This document shows positions 24,083-36,743 of a DNA stretch of 38,343 bases, in pieces. The stretch comes from a virus, in the UHGV virus genome UHGV-0196443; one strand, 5' to 3'. The notes under the pieces are model-generated. The model did not search any database and was not told the origin of the DNA. It saw only the letters and a list, made by a program, of their open reading frames with translations. The position numbers and the translations under genes were made by a program. Each line of letters starts with the position of its first letter. Positions within the stretch are counted from its first letter, which is position 1.

Positions 24083-24154
24083 TTGCAGGAGAAGGAATCG
24101 AACCTTCGACCTTCAGCTAAGGAGACTGACGAGCTTCCACTGCTCTATCCTGCT
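24083..24154 (-). tRNA. tRNA-Arg(CCU)-like gene (72 nt cloverleaf with A1.A72 mismatch, no encoded CCA)
   Basis: Minus-sense folds by hand as AGCAGGA-UA-GAGC-AGUGGAA-GCUC-G-UCAGU-CUCCUUA-GCUGA-AGGUC-GAAGG-UUCGAUU-CCUUC-UCCUGCA-A. D, anticodon and T arms are canonical, with U33 and anticodon CCU. Position 37 is U and the 1-72 pair is mismatched. Confidence 0.45.
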
Positions 24155-24799: not shown

Positions 24800-24872
24800 T
24801 CCGGACAACGGGAATCGAACCCGTGACACACAGCTTATAAGGCTGCCGCTCTGACCGATTGAGTTATGTATC
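24800..24872 (-). pseudogene. Decayed tRNA remnant (intact T-arm and anticodon arm, acceptor stem unpaired)
   Basis: Minus-sense ...GCAGC-CUUAUAA-GCUGU-GUGUC-ACGGG-UUCGAUU-CCCGU-UGUCCGG-A. The 5' half (GGAUACAUAACUCAAUCGGUCAGAGC) looks like a mutated D-arm, and the 5' acceptor strand does not pair with the 3' strand. Confidence 0.3.
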
Positions 24873-24888
24873 CATATTTTTGTATTAG

Positions 24889-31241: not shown

Positions 31242-33335
31242 CTATCCAGCTTTCCTTTCTGTACGTTTCAACTTCTTTCTTTTGAATAGCTCAACAAATT
31301 CTTTGACTTCCTCTGTCATGTCTCCGTTATATTTTGCCCGACACTGGATCATAACCCCATTGTTTACCTCCATGGTGTAAAACGGTGTCTCCGGATCCTG
31401 CTTCTTTCGCAGAAACAGGATCGTTGTCTCACCTTTGGCCACCCGGTCAATGTATGTGGCAACACAATGATGCATAGCATTTCCCTCTTGCCTGATTTCA
31501 TGGATCCGTTTCGGAAGTCTCAACACAAATTGTTCCGTTTCCATTTCCAGATAGCTGTCCCGTTTTCTGTATTTCTCGTACTTTTTGTCTTTTTTATTGT
31601 CCAAATCCTCTTTGGCTTTTATTTCCCGTTCTCCGCTCTCTTCAATCAACTCTTCATGACGCTGTTCTAAATTCTTCGGAAATAAGATCCACGACTCTCT
31701 CATGTTGTATCCCAGTTCCTCTGCCATCTTCAGATAATCGTGATAGTCCACGGCTTGTCTTTTATCTTCTCCTAACACTTCTTTGATGTACCGTTCCATC
31801 TTGTAAATGGTGGTATACCGGATATACCTGGTGAAATTCCTTGTAAACTTTGCAAAAAACTGAACCTGCTGCCATGTTGGATGTAATCCCTTCTCCTGCA
31901 TTTCATAAGTGGTGTTATATTCCCTTACACTTGGATTCTTTCCAGCCAGCAGCTGGTAATGTTCCCCGCTGAGCCCTAATATCTTTTTGCAGGACCGTTC
32001 TTTCTTCTTTAAGTATCCTGTGTTGTACCCCCGCATTTCTTCTTTGACAATTCTGTAAAACCCGCACTTTACCAACTGTTCGATTCCAGGCATACGCCGG
32101 TATCCATCTATATATTGATCCAAATACATTTTTTCCCGATATTTCCCATGTTTCACAAAACATTCCATTGCAGAATACTGAAACGGCGTTCCCTGTAAGA
32201 TTTGTTTGAGATTCCGGTTATAAAGGATCGCTTCATGCTCTGCTACTTTTGCATAATATCTCCACCTGTCTCTGTAAAACCACCGGATCCAGTCTGTCTG
32301 CTTATACTGTTCATACTCAAATTCATGAATCTTTTTTAAATTCCGGTCATACGTGATCCGTATCAGCTCCCAGTGCCCGCCGTTTTCCTTTTGTCCATTC
32401 CTGAATTTCCGATAGCACTCAAAATATCGGTATACATATCCCTCTTTTGTTTTCTGCAGGAGTCCTGCATATCCTCTTGCGTGAACATTTCCGCCTTTCT
32501 TTCGGCTTCGGTAGGTAATGGGATGCCTGCAGTATGGACATTCGCCCGCGGCTCCATAGTGTGGATTCCTGATTTTTACTTCTCTTCCACAATGTGTGCA
32601 ATACCCTTTTGTTACCTTTCTTCCGGCATCATAAAACAAATACTGGGGAAGGACTTCCCGGTCTACAAACTCATCAAAATCTTTGGGCAGTTCCGGCACC
32701 AGTGCCATCTCAGAATCAATTTTGTCAATCTCTTTTCGATCTTTGCTATAGCTTTGCCATCTTGCGATTGCTGCACGTGGCTCTCCCTTCCCGTTGTGAC
32801 AAAATTCTGAAATCAGTTTTCGTGCCGCTTCTTTTATCCATACTTTTCTGTCACTGTACCAGTACCCTTGTTGTGCTTCTCCCCATCCTCCCATGTAGCT
32901 TAAGTTATCTATTTTTGCAGTTCTCCACTTCTCACACAAATTGTCATAGGTGTAGTACTTGTTTTCTTCCAAAAGGAATACCCGGTATTTCGGATACGTT
33001 ATATCATCCTGAATCATATCTCTTGTAAATATGGCAATCTCCAGAACAGTTCCTGTCCTCTTTGCTCGATAAAACCAATAATATGTTGCACTCCACACAG
33101 GTACTTTTCCACATCTTAGTACCTGATTCCCTTGATCTTCCCTGACTGTCTTTCGCATCGTTTCCGTTACTTTTAACTCCGGAAGCTTTAATAACTCTCC
33201 TCGTCTCATTTCTCCGCCTCCAGATAGTATTCTTCTGCCATGGCAAATACTTCCAGATCCGGCATTGCCACCATTTGTGCCCCTCTTCTTTCTTTCACTC
33301 TTTTTTCCGCTTCTTTTCGGATATTCTGAAGACAT
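31242..33335 (-). CDS. PcfJ-like protein
   Basis: 697 aa with many W/Y/R residues. C-terminal NAMHHCVATYIDRVAKGETTILFLR is typical of PcfJ-like proteins. Confidence 0.55.
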   Translation of the reverse strand: MSSEYPKRSGKKSERKKRGTNGGNAGSGSICHGRRILSGGGEMRRGELLKLPELKVTETMRKTVREDQGNQVLRCGKVPVWSATYYWFYRAKRTGTVLEIAIFTRDMIQDDITYPKYRVFLLEENKYYTYDNLCEKWRTAKIDNLSYMGGWGEAQQGYWYSDRKVWIKEAARKLISEFCHNGKGEPRAAIARWQSYSKDRKEIDKIDSEMALVPELPKDFDEFVDREVLPQYLFYDAGRKVTKGYCTHCGREVKIRNPHYGAAGECPYCRHPITYRSRKKGGNVHARGYAGLLQKTKEGYVYRYFECYRKFRNGQKENGGHWELIRITYDRNLKKIHEFEYEQYKQTDWIRWFYRDRWRYYAKVAEHEAILYNRNLKQILQGTPFQYSAMECFVKHGKYREKMYLDQYIDGYRRMPGIEQLVKCGFYRIVKEEMRGYNTGYLKKKERSCKKILGLSGEHYQLLAGKNPSVREYNTTYEMQEKGLHPTWQQVQFFAKFTRNFTRYIRYTTIYKMERYIKEVLGEDKRQAVDYHDYLKMAEELGYNMRESWILFPKNLEQRHEELIEESGEREIKAKEDLDNKKDKKYEKYRKRDSYLEMETEQFVLRLPKRIHEIRQEGNAMHHCVATYIDRVAKGETTILFLRKKQDPETPFYTMEVNNGVMIQCRAKYNGDMTEEVKEFVELFKRKKLKRTERKAG

Positions 33336-33661
33336 TCTTTGAGTGTCCGGTTCTTTCTTCTTACCGCTCTGGCCAGAATTTCTTTTTCAAAACATCTCAT
33401 AGACAGATACGACACGATCTCTCCTGCCGGCATCCCGTCTGTTTCCTCCTTTAACTCAACCTGCAGCTTTCCGATGGCCGCATTTACTGAATCTACCAGT
33501 TCTTCCGACAGATGCTGCTCATATACTTCCCGGATTCCATCCGGAATCCCGTTTTCCTCTGCCAGTACTTTTAAATGCTCCAGATCCTGCTCCTCCAAAA
33601 GTCCTTTTGCACATGCATTCAATTCTTCTACGGAATCAAAATTTCCAAATACATCAAACAT
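33206..33661 (-). CDS. PcfK-like protein
   Basis: 151 aa helical acidic protein immediately upstream of the PcfJ-like gene (the usual pair). N-terminal MFDVFGNFDSVEELNACAKGLLEE. Confidence 0.5.
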   Translation of the reverse strand: MFDVFGNFDSVEELNACAKGLLEEQDLEHLKVLAEENGIPDGIREVYEQHLSEELVDSVNAAIGKLQVELKEETDGMPAGEIVSYLSMRCFEKEILARAVRRKNRTLKECLQNIRKEAEKRVKERRGAQMVAMPDLEVFAMAEEYYLEAEK

Positions 33662-34092: not shown

Positions 34093-34815
34093 TCAAATTC
34101 TCCTGTTCAAACGGATCAGGATGTATCTTCGGTATTTGTATCCTGTTACCGGATTGATCCCTTCATGGTACGTCTCTTTATCTAGGTAGTATCCTTTTGG
34201 TGGCTTCGGCTCATCTTTCCATGTTTTCCTTTTGTAAATCTTCACTTCTGCCACCGGAATCTTTAAATTCCTGCTACAGGAGTACCGGCTCTCTTTCAGC
34301 TTGTTTTCTTCATCCGGCGTTTTACTTAAATACTCAGCCAGTTTCCGCAAGCCTCCCTCGTCATACAACAGATCGATGTGGACGCCTCCCTTTTCCCATG
34401 CTCTGCGCATGATCAGATCTGCATCCGGAATCCGGTTGATGACCAGATGGTGATGAACCCCGCCCCGACTTCCAATCTCGGTATGCAGCATCCATTTCAA
34501 CTCCACTTCCTGTTTTTTGTATTGTGTGCGTACTTTCTGAATCCACTTTCGGATGTCTTTGGCCGCTTCTTTCATGTCCTGTGGCCGGTTCTCCAATTTA
34601 TAAGTTAATGTCACCCAGTAGTCATTCTCCCGGAAATTCAGCTTCATCTTTCTCCAGCACTGCCGTTCTTTATTCCACTGATTCGTCTTCCTGATCTGCT
34701 CCGGTGTGGCTTTCTTCTTTTTCATTCTCGGCATTCCCGGAGCACCATATCTCCCGTTGTGATACTCCATCACTTCTCTGATGTCTCCCAGGTCATAACT
34801 CTTTTGTTTATACAT
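34093..34815 (-). CDS. HUH-superfamily rolling-circle replication initiator (Rep)
   Basis: 240 aa. Motif 1-like WVTLTY, motif 2 GGVHHHLVI (HUH), motif 3 AEYLSKT (YxxK). Confidence 0.6.
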   Translation of the reverse strand: MYKQKSYDLGDIREVMEYHNGRYGAPGMPRMKKKKATPEQIRKTNQWNKERQCWRKMKLNFRENDYWVTLTYKLENRPQDMKEAAKDIRKWIQKVRTQYKKQEVELKWMLHTEIGSRGGVHHHLVINRIPDADLIMRRAWEKGGVHIDLLYDEGGLRKLAEYLSKTPDEENKLKESRYSCSRNLKIPVAEVKIYKRKTWKDEPKPPKGYYLDKETYHEGINPVTGYKYRRYILIRLNRRI

Positions 34816-34881
34816 CCTGTTTTGCTCCTAAGTTTAATATACTTATCAAGTGAAAAACGGGAGCTTTTCGCTCTCATTTTC

Positions 34882-34910
34882 TTTGACATTTTGCCAATAC
34901 AGGTGTACAA
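34882..34910 (+). promoter_or_regulatory. Consensus plus-strand promoter TTGACA-17-TACAAT upstream-antisense to Rep
   Basis: ttgaca (34882-34887), 17 nt, tacaat (34905-34910). A 9-bp inverted repeat TTGCCAATA (34889-34897) / TATTGGCAA (34937-34945) spans it. Confidence 0.45.
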
Positions 34911-34916
34911 TATAAA

Positions 34917-34985
34917 TGAACTTTTATTTTGTTTGTATTGGCAAAATATCCGGTGCATCTGTTTGCGGCAGGTGCACTAATTTTT
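34917..34985 (+). ncRNA. Candidate countertranscript (ctRNA-like) small RNA antisense to the Rep leader
   Basis: Promoter as above. Intrinsic terminator GTGCATCTG-tttgcgg-CAGGTGCAC (9 bp, one G.U) followed by TAATTTTTTACGCTTTTTT. No convincing ORF. Confidence 0.4.
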
Positions 34986-35261
34986 TACGCTTTTTTCTAT
35001 GTACCTGCAGCTAAGTTCTAATCCCGCTGTCAGAAGGATCATTCCTATCCATAATGATCCGGTTCCCATCATCATGACTGCACAGATTCCCAATGTGGCT
35101 TCCAGGATCCTCAGTAATTCTTCTGCATACCGAAGCTGTCTTCTCTTCCGGAAACTCATACGATGATGTACTCTCCCCCGATCTCTTCTGCTACCTGCTT
35201 CGCTTCCTGGTACGTCCCATACTCGCTCCGGATCTTTCCGGATTGCCAGCGAATGATCCAT
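34977..35261 (-). CDS. Hypothetical small membrane protein
   Basis: 94 aa with a C-terminal hydrophobic segment. Arg-rich N-terminus. Weak support. Confidence 0.3.
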   Translation of the reverse strand: MDHSLAIRKDPERVWDVPGSEAGSRRDRGRVHHRMSFRKRRQLRYAEELLRILEATLGICAVMMMGTGSLWIGMILLTAGLELSCRYIEKSVKN

Positions 35262-36367: not shown

Positions 36368-36396
36368 TTGTCATTTGTTTCCTTATCTCCTATAAT
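36368..36396 (+). promoter_or_regulatory. Promoter A (TTGTCA-17-TATAAT) of the switch region
   Basis: ttgtca (36368-36373), 17 nt, tataat (36391-36396). Followed by an operator-like palindrome. Confidence 0.5.
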
Positions 36397-36402
36397 TTGC
36401 TT

Positions 36403-36426
36403 ACAGGCATCTGCCAATGCCGAGTA
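36403..36426. promoter_or_regulatory. Operator-like element ACAGGCATCTGCCAATGCCGAGTA (GGCAT-N6-ATGCC palindrome), copy A
   Basis: Immediately downstream of the -10. An identical 24-mer occurs at 37529-37552 in the same position relative to promoter B. Confidence 0.5.
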
Positions 36427-36446
36427 AATGGGAAAGGAGAATAGAC

Positions 36447-36743
36447 ATGAAGCTTAATAGTCTCAAAAGCGAATTTTTGAAATACATGGTAAAGTCTTAC
36501 GCAAAAGATCATAAGCGTATATTTACATTTGAATCTTTCAAGTCTCTTTATCCAGAACTTGATGACGATTTTATTTCTGATGCTTTGTTTGCACTGGATG
36601 AAGATGGGTTTGTCCACGTGTTTAAAGCTGACGATGTCGCTTACGAAACCACTTTACTTCCAAATGCCATCTGTTCCGTTGAAGAAGATACACTTTTAAG
36701 AAAAGGCTACTCTTTTATCAAAGAGATACGATCATGGATTTAA
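36447..36743 (+). CDS. Hypothetical acidic protein expressed from promoter A
   Basis: 98 aa from MKLNSLKSEF with SD GGAAAGGAGA. The track ORF starts earlier, at 36417 inside the operator. No recognisable motif. Confidence 0.5.
   Translation: MKLNSLKSEFLKYMVKSYAKDHKRIFTFESFKSLYPELDDDFISDALFALDEDGFVHVFKADDVAYETTLLPNAICSVEEDTLLRKGYSFIKEIRSWI

Follow-up and report, generated by a model that had tools for sequence, protein, structure and literature searches.

What is the role of the non-coding DNA that precedes the replication initiator gene of this phage, and does it regulate the initiator, replicate the genome, or neither? The window, meaning the whole stretch of DNA that was analysed, is 38,343 nucleotides of UHGV virus genome UHGV-0196443. 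Its minus strand carries rep (34093-34815), which encodes a 240-aa HUH rolling-circle initiator (Pfam PF23343, E = 3e-16). An earlier note, made from the letters of the sequence, had called this gene an HUH Rep gene lying inside a prophage, and the HUH assignment was borne out. Rep matches PHROG 3584 and PHROG 3419, the latter annotated as "rolling circle DNA replication initiation", and residues H121/H123 and Y162/K165 are invariant in 35 homologues. A PDB sequence search with Rep matched no solved structure. The surrounding genes, among them those for a serine integrase, HTH repressors, a terminase, and a portal protein, identify the window as a tailed phage of the temperate type. A Pfam RNase_H gene lies directly downstream of rep in the window and in 8 of the 10 lineages that were looked up. 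On the other side, 161 nt separate the rep ATG (34815) from the stop codon of the upstream ORF (34977-34979), in agreement with the 160-bp leader reported before. This upstream ORF (34977-35159, minus strand) encodes a small hydrophobic protein of 60 aa, and its start overlaps the preceding ORF (ATGA). The protein is conserved in relatives, with approximately 70% nucleotide identity in the L018 group.

The leader was proposed to hold an antisense transcription unit, and its promoter (TTGACA-17-TACAAT) was confirmed at 34883-34911 on the plus strand, with a 17-nt spacer and an 11/12 consensus match. The -35 box TTGACA (34883-34888, plus strand) is at the base of the promoter-proximal arm of a large hairpin, H2, and the -10 box TACAAT (34906-34911, plus strand) is inside the H2 loop. 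Relatives keep an equivalent TTGACW and have TATAAT, TATACT, or TATATT as the -10 box, which is TGn-extended in 12 of 18 lineages. Promoter-like sites are not enriched in the region (7 found against 8.0 ± 2.9 expected), and it is conservation across lineages, not the match score itself, that places this promoter beyond chance. In the 140 nt upstream of rep, where a score of at least 10/12 has a chance of 0.024 per lineage, the antisense strand reaches that score in 12 of 16 independent lineages (binomial P ~5e-17; the lineages are related to one another, and some statistics overstate their independence). A score of at least 9/12 on the antisense strand at the equivalent place was found in 14 of the 16 (P ~2e-10). 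On the sense strand of the same 140 nt, none of the 16 lineages has a promoter of at least 10/12, and a search across lineages for a conserved sense-strand promoter for rep found none. A conserved box located just before rep, read directly from the sequence, lacks sigma-70 geometry.

These counts bear on the simplest alternative, in which a promoter-like match falls by chance beside the ordinary terminator of the upstream operon. The lack of enrichment is compatible with such a coincidence, as is our estimate of about 0.5 matches of 11/12 expected per 38 kb. However, the promoter is conserved on one strand only within surrounding sequence that is unrelated, the terminator suits the antisense strand and not the sense strand, and conservation of the element exceeds that of the flanking genes. 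We consider chance an extremely improbable explanation.

Transcription from the antisense promoter is predicted to yield a plus-strand RNA of about 70 nt (34918 to ~34987), with ends placed from the promoter and the terminator. It would consist of a 5' tail, a first stem-loop SL1 (34925-34948), the terminator hairpin SL2, and a U-tract. The same architecture of two stem-loops is predicted in 18 lineages (mean z = -3.6), and an 83-nt plus-strand stretch of the window folds with -22.4 kcal/mol (z = -4.4 against dinucleotide shuffles). The intrinsic-terminator hairpin (H1 or SL2; 34952-34978, plus strand) has a UUUGCGG loop and 12 pairs counting G·U. It contains the 9-bp stem that had been noticed about 40 nt after the promoter, and is followed by AATTTTTTACGCTTTTTT; the T-tract (34980-34997, plus strand; TTTTTTACGCTTTTTT at 34981-34996) overlaps the last codons of the upstream minus-strand ORF. 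A terminator hairpin and U-tract are found in every lineage, with stem sequences that are wholly different from one lineage to another. Across lineages, 25 terminator G·U pairs fit the antisense strand and 4 the sense strand, and the antisense fold is the stabler one in 14 of 17 lineages and equal in 2. The comparative evidence is therefore strong for a promoter and terminator unit that would produce a ~70-nt plus-strand RNA antisense to the rep leader, as the earlier note had suggested.

The accompanying statement that no ORF explains the unit needs amending in one respect, as the T-tract is the reverse complement of the last codons of a real minus-strand ORF (..YIEKSVKN*). The A-run preceding the stop codon is kept in relatives despite their differing upstream ORFs. 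A small peptide encoded by a plus-strand ORF (34916-35014, 32 aa) was considered and rejected: this ORF runs beyond the terminator, begins at or before the predicted 5' end, and is unconserved. In Rfam searches at the gathering score, only two tRNAs matched and no ctRNA family. With E up to 10, positions 34700-35100 returned only noise, and the sole ctRNA match, ctRNA_pGA1, is outside the element and scores 14 bits against a gathering score of 45.

Since the 3' end of the predicted RNA overlaps the last codons of the upstream ORF, it could also act in the manner of lambda OOP, pairing with the 3' end of the upstream ORF mRNA and triggering its cleavage, with rep not being the target. Lambda OOP, also from a temperate phage, is a short antisense RNA with a terminator hairpin. 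Its gene separates the early gene cII from the replication-initiator gene O and is read in the direction opposite to the early operon. The predicted RNA occupies the corresponding position. Lambda OOP targets its upstream gene cII, whereas the conserved partner here is rep and the overlap with the upstream ORF amounts to a few codons, or about 10 nt of coding sequence. The upstream ORFs encode unrelated proteins in different lineages and the antisense unit always accompanies rep; within the L018 group, identity is 70% for the upstream ORF and 97% for the element. An OOP-like function directed at the upstream gene is thus very unlikely.

The sense strand of the leader contains two hairpins of its own. 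The larger one, H2 (34885-34950, minus strand), has a 5' arm (34934-34950) and a 3' arm (34885-34901) of 17 nt each that are 94% complementary, and the antisense promoter is contained within it. Complementarity to the predicted antisense RNA extends over the 5' arm of H2 and the 5' half of the loop. All lineages have an equivalent of H2 at the same place, with unrelated arm sequences (mean z = -4.4). The 9-bp inverted repeat TTGCCAATA/TATTGGCAA spanning the promoter, previously offered as an additional operator, is the core of this longer repeat. Because the arm sequences differ between lineages and the pairing is kept, the repeat appears to be a nucleic-acid structure and an operator is implausible. 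The smaller hairpin, H3 (34853-34881, minus strand), consists of an A-run, a GC core, and a U-run, and is located between the promoter and the conserved box (mean z = -2.9). Across lineages, about 25 H3 G·U pairs fit the sense strand and 8 the antisense strand. The H2 stem is nearly pure Watson-Crick and without strand bias (G·U 13/256 against 19/261), which is unexpected for a purely sense-RNA hairpin and leaves room for a role at the DNA level. No conserved motif other than the -10 box was found in the H2 loop. The z-scores for the antisense RNA, H2, and H3 were obtained by folding each lineage separately, in windows set by sequence anchors only. RNAalifold on MAFFT alignments, of the whole leader or of the terminators alone, returned no consensus pairs because the stems share no sequence and MAFFT misregisters them, and it was replaced by this per-lineage folding, strand comparisons, and cognate/non-cognate permutation tests.

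A strong convergent promoter between two-way hairpins (H1 and H3) could alternatively interfere with or insulate transcription, such that polymerase collision or occlusion lowers or gates read-through from the early genes into rep and the RNA itself is functionless. The promoter lies immediately before rep and points at the early operon, and H3 is flanked by an A-run and a U-run, so that it could terminate in both directions. However, the H3 U-run is merely 3 U in several lineages (L138, L139, L141, L144). Interference would also leave unexplained the conserved antisense target, H2, the terminator G·U pattern, which indicates selection on an RNA hairpin, and the lineage-specific pairing described below. 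This makes it a rather improbable account of the locus.

The rep leader contains a segment, X (UUGUACACCUGUAUUGG on the sense RNA; 34894-34911, minus strand), that takes in the 3' portion of the H2 loop together with the first part of the 3' arm. X can pair with part of the rep translation-initiation region (TIR; 34807-34825, minus strand). This part includes the AUG (34813-34815) and the adjoining spacer, and reaches the edge of the Shine-Dalgarno sequence AGGAG (34825-34829, minus strand). Complementarity between X and the TIR has a mean z of -2.66 and reaches p ≤ 0.05 against shuffles in 17 of 22 lineages. When each X was paired with its own TIR, the summed energy was -243.5 kcal/mol, whereas non-cognate pairs gave -179.4 ± 10.4 and none of 50,000 permutations reached so low a sum. 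This cognate effect persists after double-centring, and the controls for the permutation test were negative (coding region, p = 0.24; H2 5' arm, p = 0.09). The test was repeated on 5 lineages found later, with a cognate sum of -30.3 against 0 ± 6.0. Among these 5 are compensatory cases, in which a Rep start of MPY (AUGCCGUA) is matched by the partner UACGGCA. Of 19 lineages, 16 have an X:TIR duplex that includes two or more nucleotides of the AUG, and in 18 the duplex and the H2 3' arm have at least 4 nt in common, so that H2 and X:TIR are mutually exclusive. H3, whose outer stem pairs GUCAA(A)G (34882-34888) with CUUGAU (34845-34850), lies at the apex of this long-range helix. With the antisense target forced unpaired, the predicted unpaired probability from -14 to +5 decreased from 0.49 to 0.37 (Wilcoxon p = 2.6e-4), a modest drop that is absent or reversed in approximately 5 of 22 lineages.

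In the window, X lies partly in the H2 loop, and a loop-TIR contact could form without the antisense RNA. Direct pairing between the 5' 38 nt of the antisense RNA and the rep ribosome site was rejected as the main interaction, being weak (p ~0.009) and driven by 4 lineages; it may make a minor contribution at most.

The sequence and its comparison between lineages show an antisense promoter, a terminator with a preferred strand, three hairpins, and lineage-specific X:TIR pairing that excludes H2. Together these features suggest a model that we hold to be probable, in which a ~70-nt cis-antisense RNA and a switchable sense leader limit Rep synthesis by hiding the ribosome site. As rep has no conserved promoter of its own, its transcript would come from read-through out of the upstream early genes. 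In the default sense transcript, the two H2 arms would pair with each other and leave the rep Shine-Dalgarno sequence and AUG free. The antisense RNA, initiated within the H2 loop, would bind the H2 5' arm and the preceding hairpin, to which it is fully complementary. This would free the 3' side of H2 to form the long-range helix with the rep ribosome site, with H3 at its apex, and translation of Rep would then be blocked. The outcome would be negative, dosage-dependent control of the nickase/initiator, with Rep silent in the lysogen and held back as genome copies increase. Production of the RNA, its binding, refolding in vivo, and repression of Rep are the steps that we infer.

The closest working analogue of the element is RNAI of the staphylococcal plasmid pSK41, which is approximately 83 nt long and represses rep translation indirectly by refolding the leader (review PMC5703833). 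This RNA has two stem-loops and a 5' tail, and its target is approximately 100 nt upstream of the ribosome site. According to the proposed mechanism, RNAI does not cover the ribosome site itself but, once bound, brings about a fold in which the site is sequestered (PMC5703833). Similarly, the RNA predicted here is about 70 nt, with a target from 34918 to ~34987 and a ribosome site at 34813-34829, and sequestration of that site is an in silico result, based on X:TIR pairing and accessibility. pSK41 is a theta plasmid with a RepA_N initiator, whereas the initiator here is of the HUH type (PF23343) and is encoded by a tailed phage of 38 kb that carries an integrase. Its antisense promoter is nested in the switch hairpin, unlike that of RNAI, and no sequence or Rfam relationship connects the two. 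The element would thus work like the pSK41 RNAI family but is not a member of it.

The earlier comparison to the copy control of pC194/pT181-type plasmids stands for the generic class, as a plasmid-type ctRNA fits the element well, but not for the geometry and mechanism of those plasmids, given an offset of 103 nt and the absence of attenuation pairing. Like the ctRNAs of pT181 and of the inc18 plasmids (RNAIII of pIP501), the predicted RNA is a countertranscript from the rep leader with a target well upstream of the start codon, and a U-run hairpin, H3 in the phage, separates this target from the start of rep. Attenuation of the pT181/inc18 kind was tested as complementarity of the H2 3' arm with the H3 3' half and of the 5' arm with the H3 5' half, and was rejected in the window (z = +0.6 and +0.9 against shuffles). 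Alternative pairing of this preemptor/antiterminator type has z < -2 in only 4 of 23 lineages. The pT181 and inc18 systems also have Rep_trans or inc18 Rep proteins, the H3 U-run is short here in several lineages, and no Rfam ctRNA model matched. The antisense RNAs of pC194 and pUB110 and RNAII of pMV158 likewise come from Firmicutes rolling-circle replicons with HUH initiators, and end at an intrinsic terminator. These RNAs overlap the rep translation-initiation region, whereas the RNA predicted here has its 5' end at ~34918, 103 nt before the rep ATG, and is transcribed in the direction leading away from rep without overlapping the ribosome site. Complementarity of the antisense RNA to the TIR is, by the test above, only weakly lineage-specific here (p ~0.009), which is a further difference from those plasmids.

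In these pMV158- and pC194/pUB110-type replicons the origin is upstream of rep, and in the phage leader a conserved box lies just before rep. This box (CTTGATAAGTATATTA; 34835-34850, minus strand), with the consensus CTYGAT-N3-7-TATTA, is the most conserved primary-sequence stretch of the leader. There is one copy per locus (130 loci), including one in the window, and the box and the pC194 origin region have CTTGATAA in common. The box is a candidate Rep nick or binding site (dso). These properties could signify that H2 and H3 make up, together with the box, a replication origin of cruciform or Rep-binding type, with the promoter hexamers incidental or serving only to activate the origin. The lack of strand bias in H2 would be in keeping with such a structure, as would Butyrivibrio phage Arawn, which retains H3 and the box without a recognisable antisense promoter. 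Against this, H1 and H3 have opposite, RNA-like strand preferences, X:TIR pairing favours the sense strand by 3.2 kcal/mol, no conserved motif besides the -10 box occurs in the H2 loop, and the promoter hexamers and their spacing are statistically far removed from an incidental match. We therefore regard a purely structural origin as decidedly unlikely.

A different role in replication would be that of a lagging-strand origin (sso). Here, a Rep nick at the box would lead to displacement of the sense strand, of which the stretch directly upstream of the box would be exposed last and would fold into H2. From the promoter embedded in H2, RNA polymerase would make an RNA complementary to the displaced strand that primes complementary-strand synthesis, and the RNase H that the phage encodes beside rep would remove or process this primer. 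In rolling-circle plasmids, the sso is usually just upstream of the nick site, and the element is directly upstream of the candidate nick box. Primers made by RNA polymerase are documented at sso sequences, the -35 box and spacer are in the stem of H2, which is near-pure Watson-Crick without an RNA-like G·U bias, and the rep-RNase H gene pair is conserved in most of the lineages examined. The ssoA type is a strand-specific folded ssDNA beside the dso, with RSB and CS-6 (TAGCGT) motifs and a short primer. Like ssoA (pMV158-type), the M13 minus-strand origin, and Frpo of the F plasmid, the element has promoter elements in a stem beside a candidate dso, and its RNA is complementary to the strand that is expected to be displaced. 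However, those origins function only as folded single strands and make short primers, whereas this element has a terminator and a complete duplex promoter with the -10 box placed in the loop, and H1 and H3 show RNA-like behaviour. TAGCGT occurs in some lineages only, where it is formed by the stop codon and the stem start, and is absent from the window. The promoter has the canonical form of a double-stranded sigma-70 promoter, with its correct spacing and extended -10 retained, and a folded single strand would lack the non-template -10. The RNA would end at a proper intrinsic terminator, compared to sso primers of ~20 nt, and X:TIR covariation has no role in priming. Lineage L139 also keeps the antisense unit without an adjacent RNase H gene. 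An sso in place of a regulatory RNA is unlikely on this evidence. The two could also be combined, with H2 and the promoter acting as the sso of a phage that replicates in the manner of a rolling-circle plasmid, and the same ~70-nt RNA both priming synthesis on the displaced sense strand, with processing by the neighbouring RNase H, and repressing Rep translation, which we consider rather unlikely. If it were true, the leader would hold a complete plasmid-type dso/sso/ctRNA cassette with the CTYGAT..TATTA box as nick site, and this cassette could support episomal maintenance, as in phiSM101. As for the phage-plasmid lifestyle suggested in the earlier note, this phage carries an integrase, and extrachromosomal forms are found only among distant Rep relatives (~31% identity), such as episomal phiSM101 and Clostridium "plasmid" records of 33-40 kb.

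Control of Rep synthesis by the antisense RNA and the leader is the reading that we favour. The antisense unit is also present in phiCs5676-1, phiSM101, MT835488, L053, and L054, with Rep identity from 52% to 26%. An alignment-based scan of genome contigs gave only 8 loci, and a pattern scan of IMG/VR gave mostly chance matches, with the full box in only 22 of 120 loci. Within the close family, the 161-nt element is 97.0% identical, compared to 82% at rep third-codon positions and 70-99% for the upstream ORF, and by this comparison it is under purifying selection. No earlier description of the antisense element was found in the literature. Antisense control of an initiator is textbook plasmid biology, but has not been described for tailed phages with an HUH Rep.

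The element is a conserved, unannotated non-coding module in a large temperate phage family of gut Clostridia (Lachnospiraceae and relatives), which includes the cultured phages phiCs5676-1 of C. scindens and phiSM101 of C. perfringens. If the model is right, the intergenic DNA before rep is mis-annotated where it is given as small "hypothetical proteins", the phiCs5676-1 record being an example. It would also explain how a prophage silences a potentially damaging nickase and limits its replication. The leader would then be a clear natural example of a three-part RNA switch, whose parts are a decoy arm, an arm directed against the ribosome site, and that site itself, and the promoter of the regulator would be located within the switch. 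The antisense RNA, box, rep, and RNase H make up a compact replication cassette, which may provide vectors for gut anaerobes that are difficult to engineer.

The window carries a temperate tailed phage with its genes on the minus strand. A serine integrase is annotated at 191-1609, terminase and portal genes are present, and HTH repressors lie towards the right end. The rep gene (34093-34815, minus strand) encodes an HUH rolling-circle initiator (Pfam PF23343, E = 3e-16; PHROG 3584/3419) in which residues H121, H123, Y162 and K165 are invariant among 35 homologues. An RNase H gene (PF00075; 33654-34091, minus strand) lies directly downstream, as it does in 8 of 10 lineages checked among L134-L144, and the pair behaves as a module. 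After this pair come genes for a PcfK-like protein (33206-33661, minus strand) and a 697-aa PcfJ-like protein (31242-33335, minus strand); both families take their name from the conjugative plasmid pCF10, and the same genes are found downstream of rep in L138 and L142. The window also contains two phage tRNA genes on the minus strand (24083-24154 and 24802-24873; Rfam RF00005, 55.9 and 50.9 bits). Besides the promoter of the antisense unit, a second 11/12 plus-strand promoter-like site, TTGTCA-17-TATAAT (36368-36396), is located just 5' of the lone plus-strand ORF within the minus-strand early region (36417-36743; 108 aa, PHROG 3675).

The 161-nt gap preceding rep holds both elements of the antisense unit described in the earlier note. 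The plus-strand promoter, TTGACA-17-TACAAT, is at 34883-34911 (11/12), and 40 nt past it a terminator hairpin (H1, 34952-34978) is followed by AATTTTTTACGCTTTTTT. The plus-strand RNA is predicted to fold into a small stem-loop (34925-34948) and this terminator, at -22.4 kcal/mol (z = -4.4). On the opposite strand, the T-tract reads as the final codons (..YIEKSVKN*) of the upstream minus-strand ORF 34977-35159, which is real, its protein being kept in relatives even at 70% nucleotide identity. A 9-bp repeat had been proposed as an additional operator, but it is instead the core of a longer inverted repeat with 17-nt arms (34885-34901 and 34934-34950). This hairpin, H2, encloses the promoter: one arm contains the -35 box together with the spacer, and the -10 box falls in the loop. 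The antisense RNA is predicted to start at the center of the H2 loop. The three nucleotides there (34919-34921) are the sole hypervariable spot of an element otherwise 95-98% conserved, reading GTT, ACA, ACT, AC, ATT, GTC or ACC on the minus strand in close relatives.

Promoter-like sites are not enriched in this region, so a single 11/12 match is not compelling alone. Rep loci for comparison were drawn from IMG/VR, GTDB genomes, assemblies encoding graded homologues, and cultured phages. In the close family (Rep 90-100% identical), the non-coding element averages 97.0% identity to the window, compared with 82% at rep third-codon positions and down to 70% in the upstream ORF. The layout is kept at Rep identities of about 43-50% and even 26-31% (phiSM101, L053, L054), where the stem sequences are unrelated. 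On the sense strand, the order is the upstream stop codon with an A-run before it, H1, H2, AAGTCAAG (complementary to the -35 box), a further hairpin H3, a box CTYGAT..TATTA, and the SD and ATG of rep. Within the 140 nt upstream of the box, an antisense-strand sigma-70 promoter of at least 10/12 occurs in 12 of 16 independent lineages, giving P ~5e-17 at a chance rate of 0.024 per lineage, and a sense-strand one occurs in 0 of 16. A TGn extension precedes the -10 box in 12/18 lineages. We regard a chance match as scarcely credible. Folding in windows set by sequence anchors alone was also much stronger than in dinucleotide shuffles, with mean z of -3.6 (predicted antisense RNA), -4.4 (H2), and -2.9 (H3). 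No conserved sense promoter for rep was found among the lineages; rep is therefore read through from upstream, in a sense transcript that would hold the full antisense target. In the GenBank entry for Clostridium phage phiCs5676-1 (OR574845.1; L046, 3771-3881), a 36-aa "hypothetical protein", CS5676_0051, overlies the antisense-RNA/leader element and is probably a spurious gene call.

The strand on which each hairpin acts can be read from its G·U pairs, because the complement of a G·U pair is an A·C mismatch. For H1, the counts are 25 G·U pairs antisense versus 4 sense, and the antisense version is the more stable in 14 of 17 lineages, with two ties and one in which it is the less stable. H1 therefore terminates the antisense RNA rather than the upstream operon. 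H3 has the opposite bias (about 25 sense versus 8 antisense) and belongs to the sense leader. Unlike both, the H2 stem is almost wholly Watson-Crick and lacks a G·U strand bias (13/256 versus 19/261), and it may have an additional DNA-level role. The comparative and strand evidence together indicate that the element encodes a conserved, putative cis-antisense RNA of about 65-75 nt, consisting of a 5' tail, SL1, terminator, and U-tract.

Constraining the antisense target to stay unpaired gave an alternative fold: the 3' side of H2, once released, base-pairs with the ribosome site of rep. The segment involved, X (34894-34911, minus strand), is UUGUACACCUGUAUUGG; its partner in the translation-initiation region (TIR) is ACAGGAUGUAUAA plus flanking bases (34807-34825, minus strand). 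This pairing beats shuffles in 17/22 lineages (mean z = -2.66) and is lineage-specific: the summed energy of cognate X/TIR pairs is -243.5 kcal/mol versus -179.4 +/- 10.4 when permuted, with 0/50,000 permutations as low. The effect holds after double-centring and is absent from controls using the coding region (p = 0.24) or the 5'-arm side (p = 0.09), and the sense strand pairs better by 3.2 kcal/mol. Five later-found lineages, unused in forming the idea, repeat it (cognate sum -30.3 versus 0 +/- 6.0) and include two clear compensatory cases. Where the Rep protein begins with MPY (AUGCCGUA), the anti-TIR arm is UUGUACGGC or AUACGGCA. The duplex spans the AUG in 16/19 lineages and the SD region in 14/19, and it overlaps the H2 3' arm by at least 4 nt in 18/19, so H2 and X:TIR are mutually exclusive. 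With the antisense target blocked, positions -14 to +5 are predicted to be unpaired with a probability of 0.37 rather than 0.49 (p = 2.6e-4). In L180, a 12-mer of the ribosome site recurs in the H2 5' arm, which therefore acts as a decoy.

The most likely mechanism is a two-state switch, for which we infer the existence of the RNA, its binding, and its repression of rep. Without antisense RNA, the decoy arm would hold the anti-TIR arm and rep would be translated; once the RNA occupies the decoy arm, the rep ribosome site would be closed by the anti-TIR arm. H3 would sit at the apex of the long X:TIR helix and aid its formation. Support is weak for the antisense RNA pairing directly with the ribosome site, and transcriptional interference as the mode of control seems improbable. 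We also considered a pT181-type switch, with competition between the antisense target and a terminator, and rejected it. Pairing of H2 arms with H3 halves is not above chance in the window, such complementarity is found in only 4/23 lineages, and the short U-run after H3 in several lineages was counted against it as well.

The core of the earlier note, a ctRNA-like unit in control of a phage HUH rep gene, is thus upheld computationally by comparative and folding evidence, but its operator and its assignment to the pC194/pT181 plasmid type are not, and copy control or a phage-plasmid lifestyle is at most a possibility. The antisense RNAs of pC194, pUB110, and pMV158 do not fit because they overlap the ribosome site, nor do pT181 and the inc18 plasmids, since their switch pairing was not found here. 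No Rfam family matches the element, and we found no description of it in the literature. The best working analogue is pSK41 RNAI, an RNA of about 83 nt with two stem-loops and a tail. The leader stretch complementary to it lies about 100 nt ahead of the ribosome site, and the RNA is proposed to act by inducing a structure that sequesters this site (PMC5703833). However, pSK41 is a theta plasmid with a RepA_N initiator, so the phage element would work like that family without belonging to it. Lambda OOP has a similar position, but its target is the upstream gene, whereas the ORFs upstream of the phage unit vary by lineage and the unit always accompanies rep; an OOP-like role is very improbable.

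Directly before the rep SD lies the box ACTTGATAAGTATATTAAACTTAGGAG (34835-34850, within 34825-34851 on the minus strand), with consensus CTYGAT-N3-7-TATTA. It occupies the same position in 130 related loci, is present in one copy per genome, and is the most conserved primary sequence in the region. The box and the pC194 origin region (TTCTTATCTTGATAATAAGGG, read from NC_002013) have CTTGATAA in common, and the box is a good nick-site candidate for Rep, or may be where Rep binds. Butyrivibrio phage Arawn keeps the box and has no recognisable antisense promoter. The region serving purely as an origin structure is distinctly improbable. In rolling-circle plasmids, the single-strand origin (sso) is placed where the antisense unit would lie relative to the nick site. 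If the box is the nick site, the unit could therefore act as a primer or sso, a reading also favored by the unbiased H2 stem and the conserved RNase H gene next to rep. We consider this role unlikely, with interference, a pure origin, an OOP-like role, and chance less likely again. In L032/L085 (1-110, at the contig end of IMGVR_UViG_3300045988_027373), the sequence upstream of the H2 loop center gives way to unrelated DNA in which the box core is repeated as a perfect palindrome, TTCACTTGATAAGTGAA. The junction, exactly at the predicted antisense RNA start, may reflect recombination or a chimeric assembly.

Rep relatives at about 31% identity are found in integrating phages such as phiS63 and also in episomal elements, namely phiSM101 and 33-40 kb Clostridium "plasmid" records. 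Six PLSDB records of this size, similar to phiSM101, encode such relatives (NZ_CP075921, NZ_CP076006, NZ_CP102306, NZ_MK275620, NZ_CP075960, and NZ_CP124276, from C. perfringens or P. sordellii); they are probably phage-plasmids filed as plasmids. Since relatives are episomal and phiSM101 has the same antisense unit, a plasmid-like state is possible in the wider family, with the phage of the window itself carrying an integrase.
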